Assembly (NCBI GenBank): GCA_030841185.1
Contig: JAVEDB010000181.1
Span: forward strand, 1 to 61,072
DNA: 61,072 nt
Direction of reading: 5' to 3'
From: Actinomycetota bacterium
Lineage (GTDB): Bacteria; Actinomycetota; Actinomycetes; JACCUZ01
The notes under the pieces were generated by a model. That model did no database searches. It was given only the letters and a program-made list of their open reading frames with translations, and was not told the DNA's origin. The position numbers and the translations under genes are program-made. Positions 10,793 through 45,964 of the stretch are shown piece after piece (the first letter of the stretch is position 1; each line of letters begins with the position of its first letter).

Positions 10793-11917
10793 GTGAGGCA
10801 GCAGCGACCCGGCATTCCGCGCACGGTCGGCGCCGCCGTGCCACCCACCGGGGTTGCGGCGGCCCGCGGCACCACCCGCCTGGTGAAGGTCGGCATCTCG
10901 CTCGCCGTCACCGTCACGCTGCTCATCGCCGTCCTGCCGAAGGCCGCGGGTGCCCCCTGGGCGGACATCACCGGGGTGCTGGGACAGCTGCCGCTGCTGG
11001 ACCTGGTCGGCCTGGCCGCGCTGTGGCTGCTCGGCCTCTACGCCTACACGTTCGTTCTCACCGGAGCGCTGCCCGGACTCACCCACCGGCGGGCCCTGAC
11101 GCTGAACCTCACCGGCAGCGCCGTGGCCAACCTCGTCCCCTTCGGCGGAGCCCTCGGCGTAGGCGTGAACTACTCGATGAGCCGCGGGTGGGGCTTCAGC
11201 AAGCAGGCGTTCGCCCTCTACACCCTGGTCTCCAACCTCTGGGTGATCCTCGCGAAGCTCAGCCTGCCCGCCCTCGCCATCGGCGTGCTGGTGCTCACGG
11301 ACAACGTCGCGCACCCGCGGCTCTCGGCGGCGGCGTTCGCGGCGATGTGCGTACTCATTGCTGTCGTCGCAACGGTCGTGGCCCTGCTCGCGAGCGAGCG
11401 GACGGCGGCCCGGCTGGGCAGAGCTGCCGAACGGCTCGCCGGCGCCGGGCTCCGGCTGGCGCGGCGCAGGAGAGCGGTGCACCTCGAGCAGGGCGCCGTC
11501 GCGATGCGCCGGGAGAGCATCAAGGTGCTCCGCGGGGCCTGGCCGCAGCTGTCGCTGGGGATGCTCACCTACTCCGCCCTGCAGGCGCTGCTGCTCTGGT
11601 CCTGTCTGCACCTGCTCGGGAGCACCCTGAGCCCCGCGCAGGTCTTCGCCGGCTACGCCTTGGAGCGCGTTCTCACCATGGTGATCGTGACGCCGGGCGG
11701 CGCCGGCCTCGTCGAGGTGGGCATGGCCGCTCTGCTGGTGGCCTTCGGCGGTGCGCCGGCCGTGACCGCCGCCGGGATCCTGCTCTACCGCGCCTTCACG
11801 TTCGGCATCGAGGTACCTATCGGTGGCACCGGACTACTGGTGTGGTTCTGGCGACGCAGACGGGAACGTCGCTGGACGCTGCCCGGTCCGGTCCGGGTGC
11901 TGGACGAGGCCGCCTGA
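10793..11917 (+). CDS. Lysylphosphatidylglycerol-synthase-TM-like ('flippase-like') integral membrane protein
   Basis: 374 aa and multi-TM. The LVKVGISLAVTV...LTGSAVANLVPFGGALG pattern is typical of the LPG_synthase_TM/UPF0104 family. Confidence 0.7.
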   Translation: MRQQRPGIPRTVGAAVPPTGVAAARGTTRLVKVGISLAVTVTLLIAVLPKAAGAPWADITGVLGQLPLLDLVGLAALWLLGLYAYTFVLTGALPGLTHRRALTLNLTGSAVANLVPFGGALGVGVNYSMSRGWGFSKQAFALYTLVSNLWVILAKLSLPALAIGVLVLTDNVAHPRLSAAAFAAMCVLIAVVATVVALLASERTAARLGRAAERLAGAGLRLARRRRAVHLEQGAVAMRRESIKVLRGAWPQLSLGMLTYSALQALLLWSCLHLLGSTLSPAQVFAGYALERVLTMVIVTPGGAGLVEVGMAALLVAFGGAPAVTAAGILLYRAFTFGIEVPIGGTGLLVWFWRRRRERRWTLPGPVRVLDEAA

Positions 11918-13089
11918 TGCGCATCGCGCACGTGACGGACTGCTACCTGCCCCGGCTTGGTGGCATCGAGATGCAGGTTCACGACCTCGCCGTCCGGCAA
12001 CGTCTCGCCGGGCACGACGTCGAGGTCATCACCGCGACCCAGCCGGACGACGGGGCCGCGGACCCCGCGTGGGTACGCCGAGTGCGCTCCGCCGTCGGCA
12101 ACCCCGCCGTACGCGCCGTGATCGCCGCGTCCAAGGCGCCGCAGACCTTGTCCGCACGCCGGCCCTTCGACGTGGTCCACGTCCACGCGTCCATCTGGTC
12201 ACCGCTCTCCACGGTCACCGCCATTGCCGCCACGCGGCACGGCATCCCGACGGTGTTGACGGTGCACTCGCTCTGGTCGGGGCTGGGCCCACTCCCCCGT
12301 GTCGCCGACACCACGATGCGGCTGCGGACCTGGCCGATGGCCTGGTCCGCCGTCAGCGAGGTCGCCGCCGTCCCGTTGCGCCAGATGCTCGGCCCCGACG
12401 TTCCCGTCTCCGTCCTGCCCAACGGCATCGACCCTGAGGCCTGGCGCGTCAACCCCACGCCGCGGGACAACGACGACGTGACGATCGCGAGCGTCATGCG
12501 ACTGGCCGCGCGCAAGCGACCCCTGCAGCTGTTGCGGATGCTGCGCGAGGTGCGCGACCAGGTGTCCGCCGACATCGGGATCCGCGCGGTCATCATCGGC
12601 GAGGGCCCCGAGCGGCGCACCCTCCAGCGATATGTGGCCCGCCACGGCATGGCCGGGTGGGTGAGTCTGCCGGGTCGACTGGAGCGCGGCGACATCCGCA
12701 CGGTGTTCGCGCAGTCCGACCTCTACGTCGCGCCCGCACGGCTCGAGTCGTTCGGCATCGCGGCGCTCGAGGCACGCTGCGCAGGTCTCCCGGTCGTCGC
12801 CACGGCCCGGGGAGGTGTCGGCGAGTTCGTCACCCACGGGCGTGAGGGGCTGCTCGCCGGGGACGACGGGGACATGGTGCGCGAGCTGGCCGCCCTGATC
12901 GGGTCGCGGTCCCTGCGCGCGGCGATCACCCGGCACAACCGCACGGTCCCGTCGCCGTTGAGCTGGGCAGAGACGCAGAACCGCGCGGACCAGCTGTACG
13001 ACGAGGCGATGGCCCTCGCGGGCGGCCGCCCGCGGAGCCGCGCCGGAGGGCGGGCGCAGACCCGGACGAAGGCCGAGGTGGCCGCGTGA
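11917..13089 (+). CDS. Glycosyltransferase family 4
   Basis: MRIAHVTDCYLPRLGGIEMQVHDL at the N-terminus and ESFGIAALEARCAGLPVVA (E-x7-E) at the C-terminus. The ATG shares 1 nt with the upstream TGA. The upstream part of the 775-aa track ORF is off-frame noise. Confidence 0.85.
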   Translation: MRIAHVTDCYLPRLGGIEMQVHDLAVRQRLAGHDVEVITATQPDDGAADPAWVRRVRSAVGNPAVRAVIAASKAPQTLSARRPFDVVHVHASIWSPLSTVTAIAATRHGIPTVLTVHSLWSGLGPLPRVADTTMRLRTWPMAWSAVSEVAAVPLRQMLGPDVPVSVLPNGIDPEAWRVNPTPRDNDDVTIASVMRLAARKRPLQLLRMLREVRDQVSADIGIRAVIIGEGPERRTLQRYVARHGMAGWVSLPGRLERGDIRTVFAQSDLYVAPARLESFGIAALEARCAGLPVVATARGGVGEFVTHGREGLLAGDDGDMVRELAALIGSRSLRAAITRHNRTVPSPLSWAETQNRADQLYDEAMALAGGRPRSRAGGRAQTRTKAEVAA

Positions 13090-13919
13090 GCACGCACGCC
13101 CCGGCGTACACCGTCGTGTCGTTCCACGCGCACCCCGATGACGAGGCCCTCCTCACATCGGGGTCGTTGGCGCGCGCGGCAGCGGAGGGCCACCGCGTCG
13201 TCCTCGTCGTCGCTACCGCCGGCGAGGCGGGCCTCGCGGCGACGACAGCGCGCGCGGGCGGCCTCGGGGAGCTGCGGATGGCTGAGCTGCGCCGCTCGGC
13301 CGCGGCGCTGGGTTGTGCCCGGGTGGCGCTGCTGGGCTACGACGACTCCGGGATGGCCGACATGGCGAGCTCGGCGGCCAACCGGTTCGCCGCCGCCGAC
13401 GTCGAGGAGGCAGCCCTGCGGCTGGCGGCCATCCTCGCCGAGGAGAGTGCCGACGTCCTCACCATCTACGACCCGGCCGGTGGCTACGGTCACCCCGACC
13501 ACGTGCAGGTGCACCGGGTGGGCGTGCGCGCCGCCGAGTTGGCAGGCACCCGTGTCGTCCTCGAGGCGACCGTCGACCGGACCCTGCTCAGGCGCGCCGC
13601 GCGCATCCTGCGCTGGTGTCGCACGCTGGTGCCGGGACTGGACGTGCCGCCCTTCACCGACGCGTACACCGCGCGGTGCGACCTCACGCACCGCATCGCG
13701 GTGCGCGACTACGCCGTCCAGAAGCGAGCGGCCATGGCGGCGCACGCGAGTCAGTCGAGTGCGGACGGTGGCGACCGGACGCTGGCGTTCTTCCTGCGCC
13801 TGCCGCGGCCGTTGTTCCGGCTAGCCTTCGGACATGAGTGGTACGTCGAGCGCGGCCGCCGACCCGGCGAGCGACCGCTGGACGACATGTTCGCGACGCT
13901 GACCGAGGCGGCCCGCTGA
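13086..13919 (+). CDS. PIG-L/LmbE-family N-acetylglucosaminyl deacetylase
   Basis: VVSFHAHPDDEAL...GYGHPDH motifs. The start GTG overlaps the GT4 stop (GTGA). Confidence 0.85.
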   Translation: MSTHAPAYTVVSFHAHPDDEALLTSGSLARAAAEGHRVVLVVATAGEAGLAATTARAGGLGELRMAELRRSAAALGCARVALLGYDDSGMADMASSAANRFAAADVEEAALRLAAILAEESADVLTIYDPAGGYGHPDHVQVHRVGVRAAELAGTRVVLEATVDRTLLRRAARILRWCRTLVPGLDVPPFTDAYTARCDLTHRIAVRDYAVQKRAAMAAHASQSSADGGDRTLAFFLRLPRPLFRLAFGHEWYVERGRRPGERPLDDMFATLTEAAR

Positions 13920-13920
13920 C

Positions 13921-14700
13921 ATGACGACCTTCGAACTGGAGAAGTACCTCCCGATCGGCGCGCGGGCGCGGAGCCGGCCGTTCATCCTGGGCGAGCTGTT
14001 CATCATCTCGATCCTGGTGTTCGTCTACGACCACATCCGCGACCTGGCCGACGCGCACCGGGCAGCCTCCATCGCCAGCGCCCGCTGGATCATGCAGGCC
14101 GAGCAGCAGCTGCACATCGACGTCGAGCTCCCGTCCAACCTCTGGTTGTCGGCCCACCACGAGCTGGCCGAGCTGTCCAGTTGGTACTACCAGGTGGCGC
14201 ACCTGACGGTGACGCTGCTCGTGCTGGCGTACTGCTACTGGCGACGGCCCGACACCTACCGGTCGGCGCGGAACGCCCTGGTCTCCATCAACGCCATCGG
14301 TCTGGTCATCTTCTGGCTGGTCCCGGTCGCCCCACCGCGGCTGCTGCCCGGCTACGGGTTCATCGACACGACGATCATGTCCGGCGTGGCCAACGCGGCG
14401 GGCTCAGCCGCCAACCCGTACGCCGCCATGCCCTCGCTCCACCTGGCCTGGGCCGCGTGGACCGCCGTCGTCGCGTGGCGGATGTTCCCCGGCATCTGGG
14501 CGCGAGTGGCCTGGGCGGCCTACCCGGTCCTGACGACACTCGTCGTGGTCGGGACGGGGAACCACTACCTGCTCGACGTCTTCGCGGGCGTCGCTGTCGC
14601 CGTCGTGGCCGCTCTCCTCACCGGGCTGATCCGGCCACGCCTGCGAGACAGCGAGAGGTCGCCGCAGGGCTTCCAGTTCGACGTCACCGGAGCCCGATAA
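13921..14700 (+). CDS. PAP2-superfamily membrane protein, AUR1/sphingomyelin-synthase-like (inositol-phosphotransferase type)
   Basis: The PSLH and NHYLLDV (HYxxDV) motifs sit in TM-flanked loops. The gene starts 1 nt after the PIG-L stop. Confidence 0.65.
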   Translation: MTTFELEKYLPIGARARSRPFILGELFIISILVFVYDHIRDLADAHRAASIASARWIMQAEQQLHIDVELPSNLWLSAHHELAELSSWYYQVAHLTVTLLVLAYCYWRRPDTYRSARNALVSINAIGLVIFWLVPVAPPRLLPGYGFIDTTIMSGVANAAGSAANPYAAMPSLHLAWAAWTAVVAWRMFPGIWARVAWAAYPVLTTLVVVGTGNHYLLDVFAGVAVAVVAALLTGLIRPRLRDSERSPQGFQFDVTGAR

Positions 14701-14701
14701 T

Positions 14702-15532
14702 CTACCGACGGCCGCTGTCGGCTGCGGACTGGAACAGGGTGGGACCGAGGTCGGCGGCGGGACGACCCGGGCTCCACAGGTAGCCCTGTCCGTAGCCACA
14801 TCCGTAGCCCTGCAGGGCGGCGAGCTGGCCCCGGGTCTCGATGCCCTCCGCGATGGTGAGGATGCCCAGGTCCTTGGCCAGGTCGATGATGCTGCGGACG
14901 ACCATGGCGTCGTCATCGCTGCCGCCGAGTCCCGAGACGAAGGAGCGGTCGATCTTGAGGGCGTCCACCGGGAAGCGGCTGAGGTCGTCCCATGTCGAGC
15001 CGCCGGTGCCGAAGTCATCCACGGCGACCTGGATGTTGAGCTCCTTGAGCTCGTTGACCACCCGCAGCGCCGCCTCGGGATCGTTCGTCAGAGCGCTCTC
15101 CGTCACCTCGACGCCGAGCATCGACGGATCGAGGCCGGACTGGGTCAGGGCATTCTGGACCGCCTCGACGAGCCCGGAGGCGGGCGCCATCTGGCGGGCG
15201 GAGACGTTGACCGACATGTGCAACTCATGCGCACCGGGATTCAGCTCCGCCCATGCGGCTGCCTGCCGGCAGGCCTCCAGCAGGACCCACGCTCCGATGT
15301 CCACGATGAGACCGCTGTGCTCGGCGACCGGGATGAACTCCGCCGGCGGGACCAGGCCGCGGGCCGGGTGCTGCCACCGGATCAGGGCTTCGACGCCGAC
15401 GACCTGCAGGGTGTCCAGGGACAGGATCGGCTGGTAGGCCAGCCGCAGCTGCCCGTCCGGGACCGCCGTCGCCAGGTCGGACAGCGGCGATGCCTCGGCC
15501 GCTGCCCCGCTGTTCCGCTCGTCGTCCGCCAT
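14702..15532 (-). CDS. Stand-alone EAL-domain protein (c-di-GMP phosphodiesterase)
   Basis: YQPI...GVEALIRW...DDFGTG...KIDRSF...EGIET...QGY motifs. Confidence 0.85.
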   Translation of the reverse strand: MADDERNSGAAAEASPLSDLATAVPDGQLRLAYQPILSLDTLQVVGVEALIRWQHPARGLVPPAEFIPVAEHSGLIVDIGAWVLLEACRQAAAWAELNPGAHELHMSVNVSARQMAPASGLVEAVQNALTQSGLDPSMLGVEVTESALTNDPEAALRVVNELKELNIQVAVDDFGTGGSTWDDLSRFPVDALKIDRSFVSGLGGSDDDAMVVRSIIDLAKDLGILTIAEGIETRGQLAALQGYGCGYGQGYLWSPGRPAADLGPTLFQSAADSGRR

Positions 15533-15667: not shown

Positions 15668-16885
15668 CTACTCGCTGCGCAGGCTCGCGGCGAGCACCAC
15701 CCCGGCGACGACCTGGGAGGCCACGACCACTCCGACGAGCGCGGGGATGGAGTGCTCGTAAAGCAACCCGGCGAGGGCGCCGCCGAGCAGCGCGGCCGCC
15801 CCTTGGATGCCGGCGAACACGCCGTACGCCGTGGCCCGCTGCGGCGCCGCGACAAGGTCCGCGACGAGGGCCTTCACGGTCGAGTCCTGGACGCCCACCG
15901 CCGCGCCCCACACCAGCACGCCGACGACCACCACCCAGGCCTGGTGCCGGAACGCGAGGGCCGGCACCGCACTGACGAGCAGCGGCAGCGCGTAGAGGAC
16001 GCGCGCATGCCAACGGTCGTAGGCGTAACCGGTGGCGAGGGCGGCGAGGGCGGCGGCCGCCATCCCCGCGGCGTACACGACCGGGATGCCGGCCAGCCGG
16101 ACGAGGTGGGTCCGGGTGAGGTGGAAGGCGATGATCCCGAAGGTGACCAGGCCGGCCGAGGTGGCCCCCGAGGACAGCGCGAAGAGGAAGAAGGCCCGCG
16201 GGAGACCGGCGCCGACCACCGCCCGGACCACGCCCGCCTGCGGCGCCGGGACCGTCAGGTCGTGCACCGACGGGTCCGGCACCCGCATCCGCATCCAGGT
16301 CAGCAGCCCGATCGCCACCGCCCCGGGCACCGCGAGCACCGCCATCGCGGGCCAGATCACCCCCGTGACGGCGATGAGCGCGGCGACGCACAGAGGTCCG
16401 GCGAACGCGCCGATCTGGTCGAGCGCCTTGTGCACGGCGAACCCGCGGCCGCGGCCGACCGCCCCGGCGGCATGCGCGAGCAGCGCCGACTTCGACGGGC
16501 TGCGGACGGCCTTGCCCGCGCGCTCGGCGAGGATGAGGACGACGGCCAGCGTCAGCCCGGCCGCGCCGACGAACGGGGTCAGCGCGAGCAGCGGCACGCA
16601 CACGGCGGTGAGCCCGTAACCCACCAAGGTCAGCGACCAGTAGCGCCCGGTGCGGTCGGCCAGCGGGCCGAACACCAGCCGCAGGACCAGTGCTGCCGCC
16701 TCGCCGGCTCCGGTGACGAGGCCGACGACGAAGGCCGACGCGCCGAGAGAGGCCAGCAGCGGCCCGTAGATCGAGCGGGCGCCCTCATAGACCATGTCTC
16801 CGGCGAGGCTGACGACGCCGAACCCGACCACGACCCGCCACGGCGACCACCCCGCGACCGCGGTCGTGGACGGCGCCCTGGTCAC
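15668..16885 (-). CDS. MFS transporter
   Basis: 405 aa with about 12 TM segments. The start overlaps the M56 gene stop by 4 nt. Confidence 0.8.
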   Translation of the reverse strand: MTRAPSTTAVAGWSPWRVVVGFGVVSLAGDMVYEGARSIYGPLLASLGASAFVVGLVTGAGEAAALVLRLVFGPLADRTGRYWSLTLVGYGLTAVCVPLLALTPFVGAAGLTLAVVLILAERAGKAVRSPSKSALLAHAAGAVGRGRGFAVHKALDQIGAFAGPLCVAALIAVTGVIWPAMAVLAVPGAVAIGLLTWMRMRVPDPSVHDLTVPAPQAGVVRAVVGAGLPRAFFLFALSSGATSAGLVTFGIIAFHLTRTHLVRLAGIPVVYAAGMAAAALAALATGYAYDRWHARVLYALPLLVSAVPALAFRHQAWVVVVGVLVWGAAVGVQDSTVKALVADLVAAPQRATAYGVFAGIQGAAALLGGALAGLLYEHSIPALVGVVVASQVVAGVVLAASLRSE

Positions 16886-17844
16886 GTGCTCGAGGACGCG
16901 ACGGCGACGGCACTGACCGGGGGCGCGGGGCGGGCCTGCTCGAACAGGTGCTCCGCGTCACGCTGCGCCTCCACGCTCGCCGACACGGTGATGGCGACGA
17001 GGATCGCCAAGGGGAGCAGGGCCGCCGGCCGCCGGCGGGCCGGCGGCGCGAGCAGGGCCTGCACCCGGGCCACGGTCCCCGAGTCCGTGACGTCCAGCGC
17101 CAGCGTGCGCCACCCGCCGGACGGGTCCGGCGGCGAGTGCCGGCGTACGCCGACCCTGGCCAGGGCGTGCGCGACGACGGCGCGGTCGCCGGTGGTGAGC
17201 GCCGCCTCCTCGTCGGCCCATCGCTCGGTCGCGAACCGCACCGCGGGCACGACGGACCGCAGCAGCGGGTTGACCGCGACCGCCAGCTCGGTCGCCGCCC
17301 GGTAGCGATGGTGGTGATGGCGCAGGTGCGCGGCCTCATGAGCCAGCACCGCCCGGCGCTCGGCCGCGGGAAGCGCCGCGAGCAGCGACCGGGAGGCGAC
17401 GATGCGGCCGCGGGCGCCCGGCAGGGCGTAGACGTCGTCGGCGTCGTCGTCCAGGATGACCAGCTGGCCGGGTTCGCCGCCGAGGCGCAGGCAGAGCGCC
17501 CGGACCGCCAGGGTGGCGCGGCAGCGACGCAGCCCCACCCGAAGCCCGCGGGCGCCGAGCACGAGCACCGCGGCGCAGGCCAGGCCGGCGACGCCCTGGG
17601 GCACCGGGTCGAGCGCGGACAGCGAGGCCACCGACCATCGTCCGAGCTCGGCAACCGGGCGCAGCCGGCCGAGCAGGGTGAAGGCAAGCACACCGAGGAC
17701 GAAGCTCGTCGCGGCGCTGAGGACGACGGCGGCGGCGGTCAGGGCGCGGGTGGCTGTCGCGGGCGGCAGCACCCTGCTGATGGGATCGGCCGTCGCGCCG
17801 AGCAGCAGGGCCGCGAGCAGCGGGACGTAGACAGCCACTCCCAC
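16882..17844 (-). CDS. M56/M48-family (BlaR1-like) membrane metalloprotease without extracellular sensor domain
   Basis: HEAAHLRHHH (HExxH) follows four N-terminal TM helices. At only 320 aa there is no PBP/transpeptidase-like C-terminal domain. It lies immediately downstream of the BlaI-family gene. Confidence 0.8.
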   Translation of the reverse strand: MGVAVYVPLLAALLLGATADPISRVLPPATATRALTAAAVVLSAATSFVLGVLAFTLLGRLRPVAELGRWSVASLSALDPVPQGVAGLACAAVLVLGARGLRVGLRRCRATLAVRALCLRLGGEPGQLVILDDDADDVYALPGARGRIVASRSLLAALPAAERRAVLAHEAAHLRHHHHRYRAATELAVAVNPLLRSVVPAVRFATERWADEEAALTTGDRAVVAHALARVGVRRHSPPDPSGGWRTLALDVTDSGTVARVQALLAPPARRRPAALLPLAILVAITVSASVEAQRDAEHLFEQARPAPPVSAVAVASSST

Positions 17845-17846
17845 GG

Positions 17847-18215
17847 CTAGCGGGCCTGCTCTCGGCGCAGCAGGCGCCGCAGCACAGGTACGTCGGCCGG
17901 GTCGAGCTCGTCGAGAAAGCGCGCCAGGACCTGTTCACGGTCGGGCGCCGCGTCCAGACTGCGGCGCATCGCCCGGGCCTGGACCGACGAGCGGTCGGCG
18001 AGGGCATAGGTGAAGGTCCGGCCGCTGCTCTCCCGGGTGACGGCGCCCTTCTCGTGCAGGCGCGCGAGCGTCGTCATCACAGTCGTGTAGGCCAGGTGAC
18101 CCCCGAGTTGCCCGAGGACCTGCCGCGGTGTCATCGCCCCGGCGGCGAGGCTGGCCAGGACCTCGTTCTCCAGCGCACCGCGGTCGCGCCGCGTCGCCTC
18201 CCCGTCCGCCGGCAC
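17847..18215 (-). CDS. BlaI/MecI/CopY-family transcriptional repressor
   Basis: Winged-helix region LENEVLASL...TPRQVLGQL...YTTVMTTLARLHEKGAV. GTG at 18215 is preceded by GGAGG-N4. The longer track ORF would run through the operator box. Confidence 0.8.
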   Translation of the reverse strand: MPADGEATRRDRGALENEVLASLAAGAMTPRQVLGQLGGHLAYTTVMTTLARLHEKGAVTRESSGRTFTYALADRSSVQARAMRRSLDAAPDREQVLARFLDELDPADVPVLRRLLRREQAR

Positions 18216-18227
18216 CGCACCTCCAGG

Positions 18228-18251
18228 TCTACTACTAGGATGATAGTAGTG
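18228..18251. promoter_or_regulatory. Palindromic operator box TCTACTACT-N6-ATAGTAGTG (copy 1)
   Basis: Inverted ACTACT/AGTAGT half-sites, 13 nt upstream of the BlaI-family start and upstream of the divergent DedA gene. The 9+9 nt half-sites recur exactly at 44968-44991. Confidence 0.6.
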
Positions 18252-18370
18252 ATGTTCTTGTCGTCTGTCCTTGTCGCAGGCAAGTGTCGCAGCCCAGGCG
18301 ACATACCGGTTCCCGAGGAGACGCACATGTCGAACAGGCGCCACCGACGAGGCAACGGAGCCGGTCCGGG

Positions 18371-18976
18371 ATGAGCAGCCTCGTCGACAATCTCCTCAAC
18401 GTCCCGCCGGCAGTGGCCTACGCGATCATCGCCGCGCTGGTGTTCGCGGAGGCAGCCTTCTTCGTCGGGTTCGTGCTGCCCGGGGAGACCGCCGTCATCC
18501 TCGGCGGGGTGCTGGCCAGCTCCGGGCACATCTCCCTCACCTGGCTGCTCATCCTCGTCGTCGTGGCCGCGATCGTGGGGGACACGGTCGGCTACGAGGT
18601 CGGCAAGCATGTCGGCCCACGTGTGATGCAGTCCCGATTGCTCCGCCGGCACAGCCGACGCCTCGACGGCGCCCGGGAAAGTCTCCGGCGTCGCGGCGGC
18701 CTGGCGGTCTTCCTCGGCCGCTTCACCGCGTTCCTGCGGGCGGTGATGCCCGCACTGGCCGGGCTGAGCGGGATGCCGTACCTCCGCTTCCTCGCCTGGA
18801 ACGCTGCCGGTGGCCTCGTCTGGGGAGTGGGGGTCACGCTGCTGGGCTTCTTCGCCGGCGCCTCGTACAAGACGGTCGAGAAGGCCGTAGGGCGCACCAG
18901 CGCCGCGTTCCTCGTCGTACTCGTTCTTGGTGCGATCTTCGTCTGGCATCGCCGTCGGCGAAAGGCGCGCGGCTAG
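18371..18976 (+). CDS. DedA-family membrane protein
   Basis: FAEAAFFVGFVLPGETAVILGG...GRFTAFLRAVMP is typical of DedA/SNARE-associated proteins. I chose the ATG at 18371. An in-frame GTG at 18284 is an alternative start. Confidence 0.8.
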   Translation: MSSLVDNLLNVPPAVAYAIIAALVFAEAAFFVGFVLPGETAVILGGVLASSGHISLTWLLILVVVAAIVGDTVGYEVGKHVGPRVMQSRLLRRHSRRLDGARESLRRRGGLAVFLGRFTAFLRAVMPALAGLSGMPYLRFLAWNAAGGLVWGVGVTLLGFFAGASYKTVEKAVGRTSAAFLVVLVLGAIFVWHRRRRKARG

Positions 18977-43498: not shown

Positions 43499-44893
43499 AT
43501 GTCGATCTTCACCAAGCGTCGACTTGCGGTGGTCGCGGCGGTCAGCGCCGCAGTCGTGTCCGCGGGCACTTGCCCGGCGCTCGCCGCCGCCGGAGGAACC
43601 ACCGGACCGAGCAGCAGCGACGCGCCGTACCTCGTGCGTCACGTCCCGGGCGTCACCCTCACCAGTCTGCTCACCGCAGGCGACTCGGTGGGCGGCTACC
43701 GGATGGCGGGTACGCCGGACGGCCTGGGTGCCTTCGACAACGGCGACGGGACCTTCACGGTCCTGATGAACCACGAGTTCACCGCCGCGTCGAGCGTGCC
43801 TCGGTCGCACGGCAACACGGGAGGTTCGTTCGTCTCACGCTGGGTCATCGACAAGACGACCCTGCGGGTCCTCTCCGGTCGTGACCAGATCACGAACCTC
43901 ATCCTTGCCAGCCCGACCGGCTCCAAGGACCTCAACCGGTTGTGCTCGGCGGACCTGCCTGCCCTCAGCGCGTTCTACAACCCGGCCACGGGTCTCGGCT
44001 ACAACGGCCGGATCTTCATGGACGGTGAGGAGAGTGCGCCGACAGGTCGTGCCTTCGGCCATGTCGTCTCGACCGGGGACAGTTACGAGCTCTCGGCGCT
44101 CGGCCTGGCGGGCTGGGAGAACCTCCTGGCGAACCCGGCCACCGGTGACCGCACCGTGGTGGTCGGCCAGAGCGACGGCGGGAGCCAGAACGTATACGTC
44201 TACGCGGGCACCAAGCAGAGCACCGGTACGCCGGTCGAGAAGGCCGGCCTGACCAACGGCGTACGGAAGGCCATCACGGTCACCGGCCACCTGACGGAGA
44301 GCGGCGCCGTCGACTTCCCGAGCACCGCCCAGCCGTTCACGCTGACGGACTCCGGCACGGCGTTCGACCGTCCCGAGGACGGCGCCTGGGACCCCAGCCA
44401 CCCGAACGACTACTACTTCGTGACCACGGCCAGCATGAGCAAGCACAGCCGACTGTGGCGGGCCAGTTTCGTCGACGCCAGCCAGCCCGAGCTCGGCGGC
44501 ACCATCACCAAGGTGCTCGAAGGACCCACTGACGACAGCCCCAGCTCGGTCGGACCGAAGATGATGGACAACATCACCGTCACGAACCGCGGCCAGATCG
44601 TCATCCTGGAGGACCCGGGCGACAACGCCTACCTCGCGGGCGTCTACCAGTACGACATCGCCAGCGGCACGGCCCGGCGGATCGCGGACCACGACCCGCA
44701 GCGGTTCACGCCGGGTGGTGCGTACTTCGACACCATCGACGAGGAGTCCTCGGGAGTCATCCCGGCGCCGTTCCTCGGCGAGGGGAAGTTCCTGTTCGAC
44801 GACCAGAACCACACCAAGGTCGCCGACCCGGCGATCGTCGAGAAGGGGCAGCTGCTCCTGCTGACCGTCCCGCCAGGGCAGCCGTTGAGCTAG
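43499..44893 (+). CDS. Secreted PhoX/DUF839-like protein (possible Tat signal)
   Basis: The N-terminus TKRRLAVVAA...ALA looks like a signal peptide. PDGLGAFDNGDGTFTVLMNHE and DRPEDGAWDP...DNITV...ILEDPG resemble the PhoX-type beta-propeller phosphatase family. Confidence 0.5.
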   Translation: MSIFTKRRLAVVAAVSAAVVSAGTCPALAAAGGTTGPSSSDAPYLVRHVPGVTLTSLLTAGDSVGGYRMAGTPDGLGAFDNGDGTFTVLMNHEFTAASSVPRSHGNTGGSFVSRWVIDKTTLRVLSGRDQITNLILASPTGSKDLNRLCSADLPALSAFYNPATGLGYNGRIFMDGEESAPTGRAFGHVVSTGDSYELSALGLAGWENLLANPATGDRTVVVGQSDGGSQNVYVYAGTKQSTGTPVEKAGLTNGVRKAITVTGHLTESGAVDFPSTAQPFTLTDSGTAFDRPEDGAWDPSHPNDYYFVTTASMSKHSRLWRASFVDASQPELGGTITKVLEGPTDDSPSSVGPKMMDNITVTNRGQIVILEDPGDNAYLAGVYQYDIASGTARRIADHDPQRFTPGGAYFDTIDEESSGVIPAPFLGEGKFLFDDQNHTKVADPAIVEKGQLLLLTVPPGQPLS

Positions 44894-44899
44894 CCAGCA

Positions 44900-44940
44900 G
44901 CAACGAGGGGTGGGTGCCGAGCGCACCCACCCCTCGTTGC
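44900..44940 (+). terminator. Intrinsic-terminator-like hairpin (18-bp perfect stem, 5-nt loop)
   Basis: GCAACGAGGGGTGGGTGC (44900-44917) pairs with GCACCCACCCCTCGTTGC (44923-44940) around the loop CGAGC. It starts 7 nt after the TAG stop. There is no U-tract, which is common in high-GC actinobacteria. Confidence 0.65.
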
Positions 44941-44967
44941 GTGCTCAGGTTGTCCCCGACGGAGCCG

Positions 44968-44991
44968 TCTACTACTGTCCCGATAGTAGTG
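44968..44991. promoter_or_regulatory. Palindromic operator box TCTACTACT-N6-ATAGTAGTG (copy 2)
   Basis: Both 9-nt half-sites and the spacing match 18228-18251 exactly. It lies 25 nt upstream of the uppP ATG, between the terminator and the SD (GAGGAG). Confidence 0.6.
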
Positions 44992-45016
44992 CCTACCGAC
45001 TGAGGAGCTCTCTCCC

Positions 45017-45964
45017 ATGGATCCGATCACGTACACGCAGGCTGTGGTGATCGGCATCCTGCAGGGCGTCACCGAGCTGTTCCCCATCTCCAGCCTCGGG
45101 CACGCGGTGCTCGTCCCCGCGTGGATCGGCGGCAGCTGGTCAGACCTGGTCACGCAGTACGGCGTGGAGGACAGCGCAAAGGCGCCGTACCTGGCGTTCA
45201 TCGTCGCCCTGCACGTGGCGACCGCGATCGCCCTCCTGGTGTTCTACTGGCGCGACTGGGTCGCGATCATCGGGGCCTTCTTCCGCACATTGCGCACCCG
45301 CAAGGTCGAGACGTCCACCGAGCGGCTCGCGTGGCTCATCGTCATCGCGACGCTCCCGGTGGGCATCACCGGGCTGGCTCTCGAACACGTGTTCCGGGTG
45401 CTCTTCGCCAAGCCGCTGGCAGCGAGCATCTTCCTCACGATCAACGGGCTCATCCTGCTTGCGGGGGAACGGCTGCGGCGACGCGCGGACGCGCGCGCCG
45501 AGGTCCACGAGAGCGTCGGCGCGGGTTCTCCCGATGCGCAAGACGAGGCGGTCCACCACCCCGGGTACGACGGCGCCAGCCGCCGACTGGAGACGCTGAG
45601 CTACCGGGAGGCGGCCATCATCGGAGTGTTCCAGACCTTTGCGCTGCTCGCCGGGATCTCCCGCTCGGGCATCACGATGGTGGGTGGGCTGGTGCGCGGC
45701 CTCAGCCATGAGGACGCCGCCAAGTTCTCCTTCCTGCTGGCGACCCCGGTGATCTTCGCCGCCGGTGTGCTCAAGATCCCCTCGCTGCTCGGGCCGGCAG
45801 GAGACAAGATCCACGGCCAGGTGGTGGTCGGGGCGATCGTGGCCGGGCTCGCCGCCTACGCCAGCGTTCGGTTCCTCACCCGCTACTTCACGACCCGCAC
45901 CTTGACCCCGTTCGCGATCTACTGCCTCGTCGCCGGTGTCGCCTCGCTCGTAAAGTTCGCGTAA
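45017..45964 (+). CDS. uppP: Undecaprenyl-diphosphate phosphatase (BacA/UppP), with an internal hydrophilic insertion
   Basis: GILQGVTELFPISSLGH and GISRSGITM are the two signature motifs. The ~45-aa charged segment (RRRADARAEVHES...) between the two halves is longer than I expect for this family. Confidence 0.9.
   Translation: MDPITYTQAVVIGILQGVTELFPISSLGHAVLVPAWIGGSWSDLVTQYGVEDSAKAPYLAFIVALHVATAIALLVFYWRDWVAIIGAFFRTLRTRKVETSTERLAWLIVIATLPVGITGLALEHVFRVLFAKPLAASIFLTINGLILLAGERLRRRADARAEVHESVGAGSPDAQDEAVHHPGYDGASRRLETLSYREAAIIGVFQTFALLAGISRSGITMVGGLVRGLSHEDAAKFSFLLATPVIFAAGVLKIPSLLGPAGDKIHGQVVVGAIVAGLAAYASVRFLTRYFTTRTLTPFAIYCLVAGVASLVKFA

Follow-up and report, generated by a model that had tools for sequence, protein, structure and literature searches.

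Two copies of a palindromic element in a 61,072-nucleotide stretch of DNA from an Actinomycetota bacterium (Actinomycetes, JACCUZ01; GenBank assembly GCA_030841185.1, contig JAVEDB010000181.1, forward strand; the whole stretch is called the window below) are most probably the operators of a BlaI-type transcriptional repressor. The first copy lies between the gene of this repressor and a divergent dedA gene, and the second copy lies 27 kb further on, just upstream of uppP (bacA). We assign a probability of about 0.8 to the reading that the palindromes are operators of this repressor and that the repressor, together with a membrane protease that lacks a sensor domain, controls recycling of the undecaprenyl lipid carrier through UppP and DedA in many actinobacteria. 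This reading was obtained by comparison of genome sequences.

A sequence-only reading of the window had reported a 24-nt palindrome at 18228-18251 that is repeated at 44968-44991, and had considered the agreement of the two 9-nt arms to be beyond chance. Both statements were borne out. The arms and their spacing, TCTACTACT-N6-ATAGTAGTG, occur exactly twice in the window, both times on the + strand, as TCTACTACTAGGATGATAGTAGTG at 18228-18251 (site 1) and as TCTACTACTGTCCCGATAGTAGTG at 44968-44991 (site 2). No third copy was found in the 61-kb window with up to three mismatches permitted, and scans of the window at relaxed stringency and with flexible spacing again returned only these two. The expected number of such palindrome pairs is 0, as judged from 100 dinucleotide-preserving shuffles without a single match; the base composition of the window is 70% G+C. 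The arms are identical between the two sites, the spacers differ at five of seven positions (in the N7 register derived below) and the flanks are unrelated to each other. Identical arms within unrelated spacers and flanks form the pattern expected of selection on the arms and not of block copying.

Evidence for an operator comes from the conservation of the palindrome near orthologous repressors. An alignment of nine verified repressor orthologues was used to search a genome collection, which yielded 80 loci from named Actinomycetota (individual related loci are indicated by L numbers). These span the Nocardioidaceae and other Propionibacteriales, Modestobacter, Blastococcus, Dermatophilaceae and Pedococcus, as well as Jatrophihabitans, Streptosporangiaceae, Frankia and Solirubrobacterales. 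In a scan for the operator core with N7 spacing and at most one mismatch, the 250 nt upstream of each blaI (19.8 kb in total over the 80 loci) contained 46 occurrences, distributed over 42 loci, versus 15 in the other 820 kb. This amounts to an enrichment of around 127-fold over a background of 0.018 core matches per kb, and 200 shuffles of the upstream regions gave no match. The distance to the blaI start codon has its mode at -24 to -45 and is -33 in the window, and the site keeps its place relative to blaI in different orders of Actinomycetota. More specifically, repressors with 50-80% identity to the one in the window have the palindrome just 5' of their gene whatever the neighbouring genes are (L001 and L084, both 80% identical; L003, 73%; L006, 64%; L085, L087 and L089, the last from a cultured Modestobacter). 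The earlier proposal of an autoregulatory operator for a BlaI-family dimer, held in common with the divergent dedA, is strongly supported by this comparative genomics: at least 42 of the 80 loci have a related palindrome 24-190 nt 5' of the repressor orthologue, and the divergent gene in relatives is repeatedly one for DedA, UppP or a PAP2 phosphatase. Nine sites in the 80 loci form a second cluster, immediately 3' of the protease gene.

The comparison also fixed the register of the operator. On basis of some 90 related loci it is a 6/7-N7-6/7 palindrome, TACTAY-N7-RTAGTA, with CTACTAC-N7-GTAGTAG as the family optimum, a sequence that is present in perfect form in L085 and L087. The consensus of 70 unique sites reads gtcg-TACTAY-N7-RTAGTA-gac, which both window sites (TACTAC-N7-ATAGTA) fit fully. 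The half-sites ACTACT and AGTAGT, a 6-N8-6 arrangement named in the sequence-only reading, had to be abandoned, as orthologous sites align only as 6/7-N7-6/7 and those of L085 and L087 are perfect in the 7-N7-7 form; the 3-nt periodicity within the arms is what makes the other register possible. Across the 70 unique sites conservation reaches 84-100% at the positions of the arms and does not extend to the spacer. Departures from dyad symmetry are almost always one-sided, with 0-3 compensated versus 1-28 uncompensated changes per core pair. Many loci without a strict N7 site have the same half-sites at N5, N6 or N8, and the spacing of the operator appears to have co-evolved with the repressor.

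A further line of evidence is the linkage to genes of carrier recycling. The protease gene follows blaI in 78 of the 80 loci, and genes for UppP (25 loci), DedA (26) or a PAP2 phosphatase (16) are found within a few kb in 46 of them. Immediately divergent from blaI is a gene for UppP (16 loci), PAP2 (14) or DedA (7). In a frequent gene order the operator separates blaI-protease from pap2-dedA. PAP2 enzymes of the BcrC/PgpB type constitute the other class of phosphatases that act on undecaprenyl pyrophosphate (C55-PP). The same linkage was seen from the side of uppP: a blaI lies within 2.5 kb in 13 of the 64 metagenomic uppP loci that were usable, 12 of these 13 also have the operator, and one clade among the uppP-centred loci has uppP followed by a gene of the major facilitator superfamily (MFS), divergent from blaI-M48. 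The operators of L024 lie between M48-blaI and uppP-MFS, and its MFS gene is homologous to that of the operon in the window. MFS homologues adjoin blaI or uppP in L001, L024, L090, L127 and L129, and dedA is divergent from blaI in L001, L087, L090 and many of the 80 named-genome loci. Operators away from blaI precede uppP (L113, L156), pap2 (L122) and dedA (L147, L160). Thus, the four operator-linked gene families of the window are also linked elsewhere, by adjacency and by operators, which provides independent support for the predicted regulon. Fusions of PAP2 with DedA have been noted as evidence for a role of the DedAs of COG0586 in the handling of undecaprenyl phosphate (UndP) (PMC9881974).

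The repressor itself belongs clearly to the BlaI family, with a PF03965 score of 66.5 bits against a gathering score of 22.6 over profile positions 2-114 of 115. The closest relative of solved structure is BlaI of Mycobacterium tuberculosis (2G9W; E=1.5e-3 with the single sequence, 5e-13 with a profile), and weaker profile matches were obtained to BlaI of Bacillus licheniformis (1P6R; 1.8e-3), to MecI and to BlaI of Staphylococcus aureus. The family-invariant F100 aligns with the Phe of the MecI segment '...LVLNF', in a weak profile alignment (E=0.087). This segment holds, in 'LNF', the scissile bond of BlaI and MecI, N101-F102. The residue before the conserved Phe is Arg in the window repressor and His in BlaI of M. 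tuberculosis. The sequence-only reading had also allowed for a repressor of CopY type. This part of its description does not hold: the 122 residues include no Cys and hence no CxCx4CxC metal site, the score against the CopY model TIGR02698 is 21.8 where the cut-off is 121.95, and the N7 spacing is unlike that of the cop box.

The protease encoded directly downstream has its putative zinc ligands and catalytic residue (H169, E170, H173 and E207) invariant in 54 homologues. Its AlphaFold2 model (predicted local distance difference score 92.6, predicted TM-score 0.88) has four long transmembrane (TM) helices, arranged as two N-terminal helices, a 24-residue loop, a third long helix, a protease domain of beta-sheet and helices, and the last helix (273-303), after which the model ends within about 17 residues. 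The loop, predicted to be extracytoplasmic, holds the near-invariant residues G68, W70, S71, P80 and P82, in G-x-W-S and P-x-P motifs. No match to the penicillin-binding sensor domain PF00905 was found in the 320 residues. The best fold matches in the PDB are structures of S. aureus BlaR1 (8EXS, 8EXQ and 8EXP; probability 0.93, E=0.3, TM=0.32), and a sequence search of the PDB gave only a spurious, His-tag-like match to AcrF3. The model is consistent with the arrangement of BlaR1 minus its extracellular penicillin-binding domain. The absence of the sensor domain, together with that of a beta-lactamase target, points to a BlaIR-like pair that is not a canonical beta-lactam sensor, and a response to beta-lactams, which the sequence-only reading had included among its suggested challenges, is not implied.

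The coordinates of the genes and signals around both sites are listed in Table 1.

Table 1. Predicted operators, genes and expression signals at the two sites (window positions; SD, Shine-Dalgarno sequence; ORF, open reading frame)
Feature	Position	Strand	Description	Remarks
Operator 1	18229..18249		CTACTAC-TAGGATG-ATAGTAG; core TACTAC-N7-ATAGTA at 18230-18248	exact match; 1 mismatch to family consensus; position relative to blaI as in orthologues
Operator 2	44969..44989		CTACTAC-TGTCCCG-ATAGTAG; core at 44970-44988	27 nt 5' of uppP ATG; operators also precede uppP in other genomes
blaI-like repressor	17847..18215	-	122 aa; no cysteine; PF03965	GTG 18215-18213; SD GGAGG 18224-18220
Membrane Zn-metalloprotease	16882..17844	-	320 aa; M48/M56 type; HEAAH (H169, E170, H173), E207	PF01435, E=7e-10
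MFS transporter	15668..16885	-	405 aa; PF07690	third gene of operon
dedA	18371..18976	+	201 aa; DedA/VTT; PF09335	divergent from blaI, 121 nt after site 1
Leader ORF	18327..18374	+	15 codons, MSNRRHRRGNGAGPG and stop	SD GAGGAG 18315-18320; TGA overlaps dedA ATG (ATGA)
Putative blaI promoter	18243..18271	-	-35 AGGACA 18271-18266, 17-nt spacer, -10 TACTAT 18248-18243	read by hand from the sequence
uppP/bacA, undecaprenyl-diphosphate phosphatase	45017..45964	+	315 aa	ATG 45017; SD GAGGAG 45002-45007
Putative uppP promoter	44950..44978	+	-35 TTGTCC 44950-44955, 17-nt spacer, -10 TACTGT 44973-44978	read by hand
Hairpin	44900..44940	+	perfect 18-bp GC-rich stem, 5-nt loop, no T tract	directly after stop codon of upstream gene

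Site 1 is situated in a divergent intergenic region of 155 nt, between the operon blaI-M48 protease-MFS and dedA. The genes of the operon are tightly packed: that of the protease begins 2 nt after the blaI stop codon, and the GTG of the MFS gene overlaps the protease stop codon (GTGA). The site had been described earlier as lying just upstream of the repressor GTG and overlapping the SD region; the former was found, with the 24-nt site ending 12 nt before the start codon, and the overlap was not, the SD being approached to 3 nt. The putative -10 element of blaI, a TAnnnT hexamer on the blaI strand, coincides with the operator arm distal to blaI, and TAC(T/G)AT is kept at this arm in L001, L003, L006 and L084. 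From the sequence, site 1 more probably covers a -10 element together with the start point of transcription. On the other side of the region, the relatives have an intact pap2 gene where the leader ORF sits (in the order blaI, pap2-dedA, with blaI divergent) and L001 has a frameshifted pap2 stub there. The leader ORF is probably what remains of the beginning of a PAP2 phosphatase gene that was deleted, and it would still couple translation to dedA. DedA carries the hallmark residues of the COG0586 type, FAEA...LPGE and GRFTAFLRAVMPALAG, read from the translation by the criteria of PMC9881974, which require the first re-entrant helix to contain acidic residues and the second to contain two basic ones. 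The hallmark residues alone would place it in the subfamily of UndP flippases.

The gene 3' of the second copy, which had been left without a name in the sequence-only reading, is uppP/bacA. Its product matches PF02673 with E=3.8e-72 and scores 477 bits against the NCBIfam equivalog NF001395, for which the cut-off is 394. The 24-nt site 2 ends 25 nt 5' of the ATG. The hairpin behind the preceding gene looks like an intrinsic terminator of actinobacterial style. As it separates uppP from the upstream gene, uppP would form a transcription unit of its own, the promoter of which must then lie in the 76 nt that hold the operator; the putative -10 element falls inside operator 2. The preceding gene (43499-44893) encodes a 464-aa protein with a signal-peptide-like N-terminus and without a Pfam match at E<=1e-3.

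Taken together, these data suggest the following circuit. With high confidence we infer from the sequence comparisons that a dimer of the repressor binds TACTAY-N7-RTAGTA and thereby represses its own operon, dedA and uppP. Binding at site 1 would block access to the -10 element and the start point of the blaI-M48-MFS operon, which would constitute the autoregulation, and also to the promoter of the divergent dedA, whereas binding at site 2 would occlude the promoter of uppP. The co-transcribed membrane metalloprotease would inactivate the repressor by proteolysis; by analogy with BlaR1 and BlaI, we hold with moderate confidence that it does so upon a signal derived from the membrane. This signal would come from the membrane or cell envelope and most plausibly arise when the pool of polyprenyl-(pyro)phosphate carrier is disturbed; that it reflects stress on this pool, e.g. 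accumulation of C55-PP or the action of carrier-sequestering antibiotics, is proposed with low confidence. Derepression would then raise the dephosphorylation of the carrier (by UppP, and in relatives by PAP2) and its re-flipping (by DedA). Somewhat doubtful, in our estimation, is the more specific proposal that the protease senses the carrier pool directly in the membrane, for instance outer-leaflet C55-PP or undecaprenyl phosphate (C55-P) via the TM helices and the conserved loop, and then cleaves the repressor.

Other explanations of the palindromes were considered. The arms can pair as a stem of 7-8 bp in predicted folds and both sites are near ribosome-binding sites, as would suit a hairpin in the 5' untranslated region that acts on the translation, stability or attenuation of uppP, dedA or blaI. 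The fold energies of the site regions are, however, no better than those of shuffled sequences (z = -0.65, -0.39 and +0.67), and the conserved arm sequence with its uncompensated changes over the 70 sites is the opposite of the covariation expected of a stem. Moreover, the element serves genes on both strands, its occurrence is tied to the repressor gene and part of it would not be transcribed if the -10 elements are placed correctly. Uncompensated changes and unremarkable folds together indicate a DNA site bound by protein, and we regard an RNA element as highly unlikely. Still closer to negligible is a dispersed repeat, of the type of repetitive extragenic palindromic (REP) or miniature inverted-repeat transposable elements, or a pair that arose by chance or by recent duplication and has no role in regulation. 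Two copies that agree at 18 of 18 arm positions over a distance of 27 kb could suggest copying, and a REP-like repeat had been named in the sequence-only reading as the alternative to watch. There are just the two in 61 kb, even in the relaxed search with flexible spacing, their flanks and spacers are unrelated, the 820 kb away from the blaI upstream regions hold 15 core matches, several of which precede uppP, pap2 or dedA, and the position relative to blaI is maintained across orders. On the sequence comparisons the palindrome is thus a DNA site bound by protein, and not an RNA element or a dispersed repeat.

Granted a protein-binding site, the bound protein could be another transcription factor encoded elsewhere, or the repressor could be a CopY-like metal sensor with an incidental linkage to carrier genes. 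PF03965 includes copper repressors, there is a faint match to TIGR02698, and genes for ZIP and FTR1-type transporters adjoin two stray sites (L114, L136). Yet the operator co-occurs with the repressor gene in dozens of genomes irrespective of the flanking genes, the cysteine-free repressor falls far short of the CopY model, the operator spacing differs from that of the cop box and the partner is a membrane protease instead of a copper ATPase or chaperone; we therefore consider this explanation very unlikely. A larger, though still minor, chance is given to the possibility that operator and repressor are identified correctly and that the system governs a general response in envelope or lipid remodelling or drug efflux, with the carrier genes among its many outputs and a signal that is not specific to the carrier. 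In 34 of the 80 blaI loci none of UppP, DedA and PAP2 is within range, and additional operators precede genes for DUF347, DUF6069 and UPF0014 membrane proteins, an ABC ATPase, LPG_synthase_TM and two large unannotated membrane proteins. The operon contains an MFS transporter, and the sensor-less BlaIR systems of mycobacteria and Clostridioides difficile have other outputs (PMC13492132). Against this, one of the three carrier genes is immediately divergent from blaI in 37 of the 80 loci, where about 1% would be expected for a small gene set (a figure that was estimated and not computed), the three recur at the additional operators, and carrier recycling accounts for both of the predicted target units that the window has outside the operon.

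Several observations weigh against control of carrier recycling by a proteolytically inactivated repressor, in whole or in part. Apart from the 34 loci without a carrier gene, DUF347, DUF6069, UPF0014, ABC ATPase and LPG_synthase_TM genes occur as neighbours. The closest metagenomic orthologues of uppP (76-79% identity; L012-L015) lack an upstream operator, by which the notion that the operator always precedes uppP was rejected; judged from these orthologues, the membership of uppP in the predicted regulon is plastic. The promoters are inferred, and scans for consensus promoters and terminators, of E. coli type, found nothing at either site. The NCBIfam matches of the DedA protein, to DedA as well as to UptA models, stay below the equivalog cut-offs; against the two equivalogs for UptA, with cut-offs of 250 and 300, it scores 54 and 53 bits. 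The protease matches PF01435 (M48) and not PF05569 (M56); several of its homologues match both, and NCBI names homologues either M48 or M56. Its similarity in fold to BlaR1 is weak (TM 0.32, E 0.3). In L001 (10001-11722) blaI is followed directly by the MFS gene without an adjacent protease, and in L006 and L007 (10001-10384) blaI stands alone, with repressor and operator kept, no protease next to it and, in L007, an adjoining IS4 transposase. Proteolytic control is thus apparently not universal, and the protease partner can be lost or encoded elsewhere. Finally, none of bacitracin, vancomycin and moenomycin induced the bacA homologue of Streptomyces coelicolor (PMC3123327), and the sensor-less CenIR of C. 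difficile did not respond to any of the cell-wall drugs tested (PMC13492132).

The predicted system resembles the BlaI/BlaR1 and MecI/MecR1 pairs of S. aureus and B. licheniformis in its winged-helix PF03965 repressor, in autoregulation through a palindrome with TAC/GTA cores in a divergent promoter region, and in a membrane Zn-metalloprotease co-transcribed directly 3', with its HExxH domain between TM helices. Unlike BlaR1 and MecR1, the protease of the window lacks the penicillin-binding sensor domain, stops some 17 residues beyond its last TM helix and is placed by Pfam in M48, not M56. Unlike BlaI and MecI, the repressor has no beta-lactamase or penicillin-binding protein 2a as target; its operator is TACTAY-N7-RTAGTA, its predicted targets are uppP, dedA and pap2, and Arg instead of Asn precedes the conserved Phe at the presumed cleavage site. 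In the Firmicutes, carrier recycling is controlled by sigma-M and sigma-X for bcrC and uptA of Bacillus subtilis and by BcrR for bcrABD of Enterococcus, and the regulation of this process is known mainly for the extracytoplasmic function (ECF) sigma factors of this phylum. The output is alike, an inducible undecaprenyl-pyrophosphate phosphatase and/or UndP flippase in defence against envelope stress or bacitracin. The means are different, however: ECF sigma factors or a membrane-bound activator of XRE type there, and here, in another phylum, a presumably cleavable repressor of BlaI type with a membrane protease. DedA proteins were recognised as UndP flippases only in 2022-2023.

The copper repressors CopY and CopR belong to the same Pfam family and have a palindromic operator with TAC/GTA cores, the cop box TACANNTGTA (PMC7253601). 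The window repressor differs in that it lacks the Cys-rich metal site, has another half-site spacing and is not accompanied by genes for a copper ATPase or chaperone. Closer in taxonomy are BlaI and BlaR of M. tuberculosis (Rv1846c/Rv1845c) and the orthologue of Mycobacterium abscessus, which are likewise actinobacterial and have a protease without a beta-lactam-binding domain (PMC13492132). Nevertheless, the window repressor is only a distant paralogue of the M. tuberculosis protein (E=1.5e-3 with the single sequence; the comparison concerns proteins and targets), and the reported targets of mycobacterial BlaI are blaC and genes linked to ATP synthase and cell division (PMC12565901; PMC13492132), not genes of carrier recycling. 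CenIR of C. difficile also consists of a repressor and a membrane metalloprotease without transpeptidase sensor, and it has a cell-envelope regulon (PMC13492132). It comes from another phylum, its regulon comprises an exported protein, Cwp6 and Ldt1, and no CenI operator has been defined, whereas the outputs in the window belong to a specific pathway. CenIR is part of a large class of 'BlaR-like' proteins without identifiable C-terminal domain, and such sensor-less BlaIR-like systems form the majority of the family, with signals that are unknown (PMC13492132). In the literature searched, which was incomplete, no BlaI-type regulator was linked to uppP/bacA, dedA or the recycling of undecaprenyl phosphate other than by incidental co-mention. 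The sensor-less architecture of BlaI/BlaR type is thus known, and what appears new is the operator consensus, the predicted regulon and the wide distribution in Actinomycetota.

The locus offers a testable assignment for a large actinobacterial subfamily, with TACTAY-N7-RTAGTA as operator and UppP, PAP2, DedA and MFS as predicted regulon, in hosts that include the cultured Modestobacter, Blastococcus, Frankia and Pedococcus. If correct, it would represent a new regulatory route to intrinsic resistance against antibiotics that target the carrier (bacitracin, amphomycin, friulimicin), help to find out what a BlaR without sensor domain responds to, and provide a way to nominate membrane proteins of unknown function as factors of the carrier cycle. 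Should the protease in addition sense the pool directly, the system would be a dedicated homeostatic feedback circuit for lipid-carrier recycling that is widespread in Actinomycetota, and the operator would serve as a genomic probe for new recycling factors, such as the MFS protein of the operon, DUF347, DUF6069, UPF0014 and the unannotated membrane proteins.

Among these, DUF347, DUF6069 and the UPF0014 permease (FetB-like) are recurrent candidate members of the regulon, with operators just 3' of the protease gene or beyond. The observation applies to L118 (7440-7910 and 7790-8767), L126 (7450-8259), L119 and L134 (both at about +2335), L131, L129 (5637-6575) and L024 (about 1521). The MFS protein of the operon shows faint similarity to known subfamilies, e.g. 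to the lipid-linked-disaccharide flippase LtaA (E=1e-3, far below the cut-off).

Variants of the operator were observed in several groups. In Solirubrobacterales CTACTAC-N5/N6-GTAGTAG is found next to uppP (L137, L138, L141, L142, L146, L149, L150), Microbispora, Microtetraspora and Krasilnikovia have TACGAT-N8-GTAGTA (L132, L162, L170), and TTCTAC-N6-GTAGTA stands 5' of uppP in L011, L022 and L064/L075, on contigs without blaI. Overlapping tandem arrays with a phasing of 17 nt and up to three sites occur 5' of blaI in many relatives, namely in L098, L099, L109, L123, L124, L126, L129 and L145; in these, the right arm GTCGTA of one site runs into the next left arm, GTCGTACTAC. Such arrays, which are absent from the window with its single sites, suggest that several dimers bind cooperatively.

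Further away from the repressor, a four-gene cluster encoding LPG_synthase_TM, a GT4 glycosyltransferase, a PIG-L deacetylase and PAP2_3 is found within a few kb, in the window as well as in several relatives (L001, L003, L006, L087 and L090). In the window it extends over 10793-14700, as deduced from the correspondence in size with 6335-10242 of L090. Operator-like sites lie 5' of the LPG_synthase_TM gene in L093 (+4972) and L159 (-3057), not in the window. The cluster may represent a glycolipid pathway that is loosely associated with the system. A stand-alone gene for an EAL-domain protein, i.e. a phosphodiesterase of cyclic di-GMP, is located at 14702-15532, convergent with the end of the blaI-M48-MFS operon, and EAL/GGDEF genes are also present near the system in Modestobacter (L089).

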